This document shows, one piece after another, positions 29,842 through 30,337 of a stretch of 42,991 nucleotides of DNA. This DNA is from Escherichia phage hz69, in sequence record ON556632.1. One strand, written 5' to 3'. The stretch's first letter is position 1. Each line of letters begins with the position of its first letter. Both the position numbers and the translations under genes were made by a program. Under the pieces are notes generated by a model. It saw only the letters and a program-made list of their open reading frames with translations. It did not search any database and was not told where the DNA came from.

Positions 29842-30105
29842 CTATTCCAGAATATTCCTCACGTAATCCTGCAACATGAACACTTTCAGACGCAGTTGCC
29901 GTACACATTCTGTGTTCTGAACGTCAATGGCTAAATCCTCATCGGCATCGCTACTTGGCGCGGCCAGTTTGCATGGCGGCTGCATCATCGTCGTATCCGG
30001 GGATGGAATTGGCGTTTGCGACGGCGCGGGACTTGAGCAGGACGCGAGCATCGTCGAAAGTGCACACGCTGCGGCCAGGCGTTTTAATGTACTTAACGAC
30101 TTCAC
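29842..30105 (-). CDS. o-spanin (Rz1-like outer-membrane lipoprotein)
   Basis: Signal peptide with lipobox LASC then Pro-rich mature region; +1-frame overlap with the 3' part of the Rz-like gene; GTG start with RBS AGAGGTG. Confidence 0.65.
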   Translation of the reverse strand: MKSLSTLKRLAAACALSTMLASCSSPAPSQTPIPSPDTTMMQPPCKLAAPSSDADEDLAIDVQNTECVRQLRLKVFMLQDYVRNILE

Positions 30106-30337
30106 GGGTAATCACCTCTGATTTCGTCTTGCCTTCGTTGTCAGCGGCGGCGGCCTTTGATTCGTCCTGCTGCTGCCGTTGTGTTTTCTTCGCTAACTCA
30201 GCCTGTGCTTTCTGCTGTTGCTGCGAAACTAGATTAGCCCTGCCTCCGTTCCAGCCGCTGCGGTATTGATAGATGCCGTGTGCGTAAGCCAGGATGATGA
30301 AACATGCTCCCGCTACGACAGTTGCCTTAAGATTCAT
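29951..30337 (-). CDS. i-spanin (Rz-like)
   Basis: N-terminal TM helix, Gln-rich coiled coil, overlapping embedded lipoprotein gene; RBS AAAGGAG. Confidence 0.7.
   Translation of the reverse strand: MNLKATVVAGACFIILAYAHGIYQYRSGWNGGRANLVSQQQQKAQAELAKKTQRQQQDESKAAAADNEGKTKSEVITREVVKYIKTPGRSVCTFDDARVLLKSRAVANANSIPGYDDDAAAMQTGRAK

Follow-up and report, generated by a model that had tools for sequence, protein, structure and literature searches.

The lysis genes of phage lambda form one contiguous cassette, S-R-Rz/Rz1, located behind pR', in which Rz1 is fully embedded and the antiholin is produced from a dual start. Phage T7 (genes 17.5, 18.5/18.7 and 3.5) places an embedded spanin pair of unrelated families amid its packaging and morphogenesis genes, between the terminase genes and under transcription by T7 polymerase, with the lysozyme gene elsewhere. 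In T4 the lysis genes are dispersed (t, e and pseT.3-pseT.2), and the spanins are near neither the holin nor the endolysin (PMC6139136). Separation of the spanins from the holin-endolysin genes has already been stated in print for Schulenberg, a relative of the phage analyzed here, and in phage Golestan the spanins are ORF7 and ORF8 and the holins and endolysin ORF66-68 (PMC7203180). The "Jersey" i-spanin and o-spanin family of Kongari et al. (2018) comprises 27-28 phages, K1G, K1H and K1ind1-3 among them, and features a 155-bp gene overlap, polyQ stretches and the conserved o-spanin cysteines Cys45 and Cys67 (PMC6139136).

The window, i.e. the whole stretch of DNA analyzed here (42,991 nt), is as long as a complete genome of Kagunavirus, a genus of the subfamily Guernseyvirinae. 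Positions 29000-32700 match 482 phage records, with a DNA identity of 90-96% to Kagunavirus; the best matches are the Kagunavirus genomes LM08P2, AV104 and BASEL Bas70-76 (94-96% identity), and 360 Salmonella phages likewise match. The spanin, head and lysis-cassette genes discussed all lie on the minus strand, the exception being a plus-strand moron (an inserted accessory gene). The lysis genes fall into two loci. The spanin locus (30337-29842) contains:

30337..29951, minus strand: i-spanin (Rz-like), 128 aa, ATG start, AAGGAG ribosome-binding site, phrog_2536
30105..29842, minus strand: o-spanin (Rz1-like lipoprotein), 87 aa, GTG start, phrog_1267 and phrog_5672

The holin-endolysin locus (39261-38225) contains:

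39261..38953, minus strand: holin 1, 102 aa, TTG start, three hydrophobic segments (class-I-like), phrog_2359
38960..38688, minus strand: holin 2 or possible antiholin, 90 aa, ATG overlapping the holin-1 stop, two hydrophobic segments, basic C-terminal tail
38710..38225, minus strand: soluble endolysin (phage lysozyme), 161 aa, GTG start, PF00959 (E = 1.3e-27)

The two loci are 7.9 kb apart, close to the roughly 8 kb that the first-pass annotation had given for a split lysis system. Terminators, promoters and about 20 genes stand between the spanins and the endolysin; the genes do not form a contiguous cassette of the lambda type. Homology, protein features and synteny agree in supporting a holin/holin-endolysin cassette and an unlinked, two-component spanin pair. 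The split layout is real but already known, being a subfamily-wide trait that involves a published spanin family. The window very probably encodes the standard three-step lysis system of a tailed phage infecting Gram-negative bacteria, laid out in two loci as across Guernseyvirinae. Putative spanin and holin functions are assigned from homology and sequence features. One locus would supply a holin and a second holin or antiholin, both small membrane proteins, together with a soluble lysozyme; the other would supply an inner-membrane i-spanin and an outer-membrane lipoprotein o-spanin, which are predicted to bridge the periplasm and to disrupt the outer membrane after loss of the peptidoglycan. 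Such a split would be tolerable because spanins, as established for lambda Rz/Rz1, do not set lysis time and need only accumulate before the holin fires.

The Guernseyvirinae relatives examined (the Kagunaviruses K1G/K1ind, Golestan, Bas70-76 and Schulenberg, Jerseyvirus Shelanagig and Cornellvirus Shemara) have the same genes and gene order at both loci, and the 155-nt overlap. Compared with these relatives, the window has a moron of its own, which separates a decoration gene from a structured RNA element upstream of Rz. The endolysin is followed by an additional terminator (T1), and the second copy of the RNA found in some Kagunaviruses is absent. In Cornellvirus the spanin genes are nearly separated and the RNA element is absent. 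The window resembles lambda in encoding a holin (with a possible antiholin), a soluble muramidase, and an i-spanin with an o-spanin in the +1 frame. Unlike in lambda, the spanin genes are located 7.9 kb away and merely overlap, and the putative antiholin is a second gene. T4 differs from the window in that its spanin genes are separated and of different protein families, and in that its holin and endolysin are also apart.

The i-spanin matched phrog_2536 ("Rz-like spanin") with E = 4.8e-55. Hydropathy analysis identified a single hydrophobic 19-mer (residues 5-23, with K4 just before it), pointing to one N-terminal membrane helix. The protein has two polyQ stretches, QQQQ and QQQ, and one periplasmic cysteine, C91. 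A single-sequence AlphaFold model predicts helices at residues 3-63, 69-84 and 94-107, with a mean pLDDT of only 59. Homologues were found by tblastn in 506 phage records, mainly of Guernseyvirinae; identity is 90-98% within Kagunavirus, 55-76% to Jerseyvirus and Cornellvirus, and 90-93% to K1G and K1ind2, which are listed Jersey-family members. The GTG start of the o-spanin is preceded by GAGGTGAT and is offset by 232 nt, placing the gene in the +1 frame relative to Rz, with which it overlaps by 155 nt. Its signal, MKSLSTLKRLAAACALSTMLAS-C23-S24, contains the lipobox LASC and Cys23 followed by Ser rather than Asp at the +2 position, as expected of sorting to the outer membrane. The first-pass description of an Rz-like i-spanin with an overlapping lipoprotein gene in the +1 frame is thus borne out. 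In addition, Cys45 and Cys67 of the o-spanin and C91 of Rz could serve as periplasmic cysteines for intermolecular disulfides. The match of the o-spanin to phrog_1267 covers residues 8-86 (E = 8e-18), while that to phrog_5672 (E = 3.6e-30) covers residues 41-87 only, the latter family having 47 positions that correspond to the C-terminal part. In the Bas74 record the o-spanin is annotated in a truncated 47-aa form from which the signal peptide is absent; the 87-aa lipoprotein reading improves both on this annotation and on phrog_5672. Searches of Pfam and NCBIfam gave no match for the spanins, the holins or a 97-aa protein encoded upstream of holin 1, and PHROGs alone names them. Judged by its sequence, the spanin pair of the window is a member of the Jersey family, with which it agrees on the overlap, the polyQ stretches and the o-spanin cysteines.

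The position of these genes amid head genes would also fit a different reading, in which the Rz-like and lipoprotein ORFs encode head-assembly accessory proteins, or membrane proteins that resemble spanins, rather than lysis proteins. The lack of Pfam and NCBIfam matches is compatible with this, and the spanin role of the family is itself deduced from sequence. Nevertheless, all sequence hallmarks of spanins are seen, the PHROG matches are strong, no alternative spanin candidate is adjacent to the endolysin, and Kongari et al. placed the family among the spanins in their curation (PMC6139136). Moreover, an Rz homologue of 37% identity in a lambdoid Klebsiella phage lies within a canonical holin-lysozyme-Rz cassette. 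Spanins of this family are therefore of an ordinary kind, their location in Guernseyvirinae being a trait of the lineage, and a role outside lysis is extremely improbable.

Turning to the holin-endolysin locus, holin 1 matched phrog_2359 (E = 2.9e-29) and has a charged tail and no dual-start motif. No in-frame start lies upstream, the ORF opening at TTG 39261; GGAGG is located at 39273-39269, 7 nt upstream of the TTG. For holin 2, the alignment to phrog_2508 (E = 2.2e-33) starts at residue 52 of a longer ORF, and the true start is ATG 38960, with GGAGG 5 nt upstream. Labels for the two holins vary in the literature (class I/II or holin/antiholin). By sequence, either of the two may be the holin; holin 2 is a possible antiholin. 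The endolysin contains no hydrophobic 19-mer, and hence no membrane or signal-anchor segment, as in canonical lysozymes, and its start, GTG 38710, is the same in relatives. Both the separate cassette of two holin-like genes and a lysozyme, including its outer limits, and the TTG start with a GGAGG ribosome-binding site had been correctly recognized in the first-pass annotation. The following features surround the cassette:

39630..39337, minus strand: gene of a basic 97-aa protein (pI 11.0) upstream of the cassette, phrog_9632 (unknown function)
39267..39306, minus strand: hairpin over the holin-1 Shine-Dalgarno (SD) sequence, AUCCUCCAG-22 nt-CUGGAGGAU, 9 bp, 3' arm containing GGAGG
38098-38066, minus strand: intrinsic terminator T1, a hairpin with a U-run (fold), after the endolysin
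37993-37960, minus strand: intrinsic terminator T2, likewise a hairpin with a U-run (fold)

The hairpin over the start region of holin 1 has a predicted folding energy of -23.8 kcal/mol (z = -2.9). As this predicted hairpin buries the SD, the GGAGG is not simply a strong ribosome-binding site. The TTG start is conserved in Kagunavirus relatives and is a Kagunavirus trait. Jerseyviruses have a different holin hairpin of 12-13 bp, in which CUCC pairs with GGAG, plus a U-run and a GTG start; in a third lineage the stem differs again and the start codon is ATG. Since three lineages follow the same anti-SD/SD logic with different hairpins and different start codons, the conserved feature is the buried SD and not the TTG. 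Holin synthesis would be held down by the weak TTG start together with the SD-pairing hairpin. In lambda, a stem-loop upstream of S (the sdi structure) tunes holin translation. The hairpin supports the earlier idea of restrained holin output and would strengthen the case for fine-tuned timing.

The holin-endolysin cassette is proposed to be the distal end of an operon of small genes of ~2-4 kb, which would be driven by sigma-70-type promoters at 41138-41110 and 42548-42516. Both sites are members of a promoter family that recurs in the window, driving the moron and a region at 21760 as well. From 41387 to the cassette, the search detected no terminator on the minus strand. The best sigma70 promoter match immediately before the cassette was 9/12 (39349-39320), in keeping with the first-pass statement that no obvious promoter is present. 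The tandem terminators that were said to bound the cassette are both real, but they are located on its 3' side only, and the distal one alone is conserved among Kagunaviruses: T2 and the stretch preceding it are 92-95% conserved, while T1 is variable. Between T1 and T2 there are a promoter-like site and a CU-rich stretch of ~60 nt. This conserved stretch after the endolysin is a candidate small RNA (38026-37960). Its 5' end matches that end of 16S rRNA which carries the anti-Shine-Dalgarno, so that sites of this kind could be its targets.

The basic protein encoded just upstream of the cassette, also as first described, has homologues confined to this phage group and contains no Pfam domain. 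A PDB search gave no sequence match, and Foldseek returned only non-significant AP2-like and dsRBD-like matches (E of at least 0.5). The protein is possibly nucleic-acid binding. With a weak AlphaFold model (pLDDT 67) and non-significant fold matches, no role was assigned to it. Its gene does not directly adjoin the holin in Raoultella phage RP180, where a further gene intervenes.

The surroundings of the spanin genes were examined in the same way, and the following neighboring features were identified:

32644..31568, minus strand: MuF-like gene (PF04233), upstream of the spanins
31568..31107, minus strand: Hoc-like decoration gene, between the MuF-like gene and Rz
29760..29841, minus strand: Rz1-scaffold spacer, with a GGAATA-ATT-TATTC palindrome/hairpin and a second hairpin, AUCCGGG-UGG-CCCGGAU (fold)

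Downstream of the spanins are the scaffold gene, the true start of which is ATG 29759 and not TTG 29813, and then the major capsid gene. The moron lies between the decoration gene and the RNA element, in convergent orientation, with a promoter at 30656-30687 and a terminator at 31083-31103. The first-pass placement of the spanins between the MuF-like and scaffold genes is correct as to position, but it passes over the decoration gene, the plus-strand moron and a conserved non-coding element. All 50 related loci with both flanks show the decoration gene, a variable gap, Rz/Rz1 and the scaffold gene in this order. They are Bas74, Jerseyvirus Shelanagig, Cornellvirus Shemara and 47 of 48 loci retrieved from IMG/VR by means of the Rz protein; the 48th is without an upstream flank and hence was not scored for synteny. 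The major capsid gene came next in 44 of the 50 syntenic loci, and in the other six no capsid gene was detected. In relatives the decoration gene and Rz are 321 to 1694 nt apart, the constant part of this gap being the last ~320 nt. The Rz1-scaffold spacer, which measures 86-88 nt in 42 of 51 related loci, shows compensating changes in Jerseyvirus. A TTGACA after Rz1 (29813-29808) was considered as a scaffold promoter and rejected, as no suitable -10 accompanies it and Jerseyvirus does not share the hexamer.

Upstream of Rz, the window contains these non-coding features:

30590..30641, no strand assigned: GGAATA repeats and palindromes (GGAATAACTGGAATA; GAATA-AAC-TATTC; CTATTCGAATAG) between the Rz-ward and the divergent moron promoters
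30561..30589, minus strand: promoter-like site directed at Rz, read from the sequence: TTGACT, 17-nt spacer, TG-n-TAAGCT (extended -10)
30456..30560, minus strand: structured RNA core of ~105 nt, consisting of a 5' hairpin, a long three-part hairpin and an invariant single-stranded UUCGGAAGGGCC
30362..30381, minus strand: GC-rich hairpin, GCCCCGC-UUUAAG-GCGGGGC, then UUUACUUAUC, found by terminator scan 24 nt before the Rz ATG

The repeats and palindromes at 30590..30641 are kept in relatives. TGGAATA occurs in 11 copies in the window, compared with 3.8 expected, and five of these flank the spanin genes. The -35 hexamer of the promoter-like site (TTGACT or a one-base variant) was present in 47 of 48 distinct upstream sequences from Kagunavirus and Jerseyvirus loci; the -10 hexamer, TAAGCT, is poor. 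The RNA core scored 110.7 bits with covariance model R1. In the covariance-model alignment of 33 copies, 94.7% of the cells were compatible with pairing, compared with 27-44% in slid controls, and 16 of the 28 pairs showed double changes, compared with 2-5 in the controls; having been fitted to the covariance model, this alignment somewhat favors structure. An independent MAFFT/RNAalifold analysis of the full leader likewise backs the core stem and the hairpin before Rz. Between the core and that hairpin there is a less conserved stretch. The hairpin is terminator-like with a weak U-tract (fold z = -3.2), and compensatory changes were observed at two of its stem positions in relatives.

Searching Rfam with the whole window gave no match at gathering thresholds, and near the spanins only a chance-level wcaG match was returned (19 bits, threshold 42). 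A tRNA search found none. Small leader ORFs of 36-39 aa annotated in relatives were rejected as genes, because their frame is broken by single-base indels between close relatives; the leader stretch of the window upstream of Rz has only a 38-aa ORF. The core is the sole copy in the window, nhmmer and the covariance model having found no second one, and a 14-mer scan of IMG/VR led back to this phage group, its other matches being chance ones without support from the covariance model. At least eight Kagunavirus contigs carry a second promoter and RNA-core copy, which precedes the opening gene of the operon whose last members encode the 97-aa protein, the two holins and the endolysin. Cornellvirus has no RNA element although its spanins are in the same place, so the split layout can exist without it.

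The conserved promoter, leader RNA and hairpin lie directly upstream of the spanins. A hairpin comes after the decoration gene; in Jerseyvirus it has a U-run and is just before the RNA element, and in the window the convergent moron stands between the decoration gene and the element. Because of this arrangement, the spanins are probably the first genes of the scaffold-capsid transcription unit, as read from the sequence. They would be the promoter-proximal genes of a scaffold-major capsid unit that ends at the terminator behind the capsid gene (27990-27969). The hairpin before Rz, a potential transcription stop, and the poor -10 hexamer count against this model. A published time-course RNA-seq study of a relative is coarse, assigning the lysozyme and the head genes alike to its "middle" class, and does not resolve the lysis loci.

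That potential stop may be taken at face value. The element upstream of Rz would then be a free-standing small RNA gene, made up of the promoter, ~195 nt and the terminator hairpin and having no particular link to the spanins, which would be transcribed by read-through from the upstream head genes. The hairpin at 30381-30362 passes the terminator scan, the invariant single-stranded UUCGGAAGGGCC might serve as a seed region, and the second copy in the Kagunavirus contigs looks like an independent unit, as it is followed by a hairpin of its own, after which the next genes have another promoter. Nevertheless, the U-tract after the hairpin is weak (UUUACUUAUC in the window, UUAGCG in Jerseyvirus), the hairpin is just 24 nt from the Rz start, and Rz has no other available promoter. 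Read-through is moreover opposed by the hairpin after the decoration gene, with its U-run in Jerseyvirus, and by the convergent moron of the window. A small RNA gene at this position is thus possible, if somewhat unlikely.

The same location, directly after a conserved promoter and directly before a terminator-like hairpin, would suit a cis-acting RNA, namely a put-like antiterminator or an attenuator that decides on the passage of polymerase through this hairpin and later terminators into the spanin, scaffold and capsid genes. The two-hairpin architecture with its strong covariation is consistent with this, as are the paralogous copy at the head of the other long operon in some relatives and the further terminators inside the string of structural genes (e.g. 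27990-27969 and 32670-32655). HK022 put and lambda pR'-6S-tR' offer an analogy, in that a structured or short RNA after a promoter and before a terminator heads a long late operon. The lambda late operon begins with lysis genes and HK022 has two copies of put, and the general logic of lambda pR'-tR' and of put is similar to that of the putative cis-acting RNA. However, the element of the window has no sequence or model similarity to these RNAs and no Rfam similarity to known antitermination RNAs, and no antiterminator protein was identified. The window also dispenses with a second copy, and Cornellvirus with the element altogether. Control of this kind is unlikely. A broader scheme, in which both loci would be under undescribed control at the RNA level through a put-like antiterminator or attenuator on the spanin side, an SD-gated holin and the CU-rich candidate small RNA, is quite unlikely. 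Transcription of the spanins as promoter-proximal genes remains the preferred reading.

The putative regulatory RNA features at the two loci were not found in the literature: no paper combining "Jerseyvirus" and "small RNA" was retrieved, and the Guernseyvirinae papers examined make no mention of them. These features next to the spanin and holin-endolysin loci are the only new items here. As to the layout, the finding re-derives an arrangement that the phage-lysis field had already noted and that sequenced phages of Kagunavirus, Jerseyvirus and Cornellvirus share by the hundreds. Worth following up are the structured RNA before the spanin genes, the hairpin that covers the ribosome-binding site of holin 1 and the candidate small RNA after the endolysin. 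Kagunaviruses are tractable on E. coli K-12 via BASEL, which makes the split spanins, the putatively hairpin-gated TTG start of the holin and the RNA upstream of Rz accessible targets. Such targets could help to explain what sets the time of lysis, and late transcription, in a virulent siphovirus that is small and has no recognizable Q- or N-type regulator.

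The i-spanin gene Rz is preceded on the minus strand by a conserved non-coding unit, and a short spacer separates the o-spanin gene Rz1 from the scaffold gene.

30362-30641, minus strand: conserved non-coding unit directly 5' of Rz
29760-29841, minus strand: short Rz1-scaffold spacer (counterpart at 3997-4080 in the related phage L002)

The unit is made up of GGAATA palindromes, an extended -10 promoter-like site, an RNA core and a terminator-like hairpin. The RNA core is about 105 nt long and has two covarying hairpins, with UUCGGAAGGGCC invariant. No Rfam family was found for the unit, and in the records of Bas74 and the Jerseyvirus relative Shelanagig this stretch is annotated as a hypothetical protein of 36-39 aa. 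The spacer contains two hairpins, one of them (about 14 bp) an extension of a GGAATA-ATT-TATTC palindrome. Both stay paired despite the sequence changes between Kagunavirus and Jerseyvirus. Two copies of GGAATA lie inside the final codons of Rz1. The Bas74 record (L001 12843-12986) gives the o-spanin as a 47-aa fragment missing the signal peptide and lipobox, and PHROG 5672 spans only 47 positions, corresponding to the C-terminal part of the protein. The correct reading is the full 87 aa from a GTG start.

In some Kagunavirus genomes the promoter and RNA core found upstream of Rz occur twice, the second copy lying immediately 5' of the promoter for the operon that ends in holin-endolysin. This second copy leads into a 3' part and hairpin that differ from those after the copy upstream of Rz. 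The window holds a single copy of the core, and a distinct non-coding stretch occupies the site of the relatives' second copy.

L120, 4166-4273: second promoter and RNA core copy
L115, 12248-12355: second promoter and RNA core copy
L076, 11816-11923: second promoter and RNA core copy
L072, L078, L119, L127 and L132: second promoter and RNA core copy also present
Window 42630-42914, minus strand: distinct non-coding stretch

Within this stretch lie a separate promoter-like site, TTGACA-17-TAAGGT, and, at 42650-42630, a strong terminator; the plus-strand ORF at 42540-42875 (111 aa) is probably spurious. Two further features lie on the same strand on either side of the holin-endolysin cassette.

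37960-38061, minus strand: candidate small RNA region with promoter-like site, CU-rich stretch and terminator
39337-39630, minus strand: 97-aa protein, pI 11

In the former, a CU-rich stretch some 60 nt long, a candidate small RNA, lies between a promoter-like TTGACA-17-GATACT and a strong terminator. Its predicted 5' end reads AUCACCUCCU, identical in sequence to the anti-Shine-Dalgarno end of 16S rRNA. Conservation of the stretch is 92-95% in Kagunaviruses and 78% in one Jerseyvirus. The 97-aa protein is found solely in this phage group. Its N-terminal part is Arg-rich and its C-terminal part is predicted to be beta-beta-alpha; fold matches were confined to AP2-type DNA-binding and dsRNA-binding domains and were weak and not significant.

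Repeated sigma-70-type promoters in the window fall into two families, and one copy lies within a moron.

3002-3046, 5440-5484, 9096-9140, 21760-21791 and 30656-30687, plus strand: repeated promoters
42548-42516 and 41138-41105, minus strand: repeated promoters
30656-31103, plus strand: moron flanked by the decoration gene and the spanin leader

In both families an AATAG-N4-CTATT palindrome spans the spacer and -10; it looks like a common operator for a putative regulator. Besides the promoter, the moron contains a 55-aa ORF (30713-30880, phrog_30492) and a terminator. Across 50,697 phage records, no Guernseyvirinae record matched the moron body, and the promoter was its sole recurring part; one 150-nt stretch is 72% identical to a Desulfovibrio phage. 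The site is an insertion hot spot, since relatives have gaps of anywhere between 321 and 1694 nt there.

Six relatives (L011, L014, L018, L028, L030 and L037) have near-identical spanins, with Rz 91-96% identical, and a divergent scaffold gene of about 67% identity; no match to the window's major capsid protein was detected in them. Immediately after the spanin genes, these relatives have therefore acquired another capsid module by exchange.
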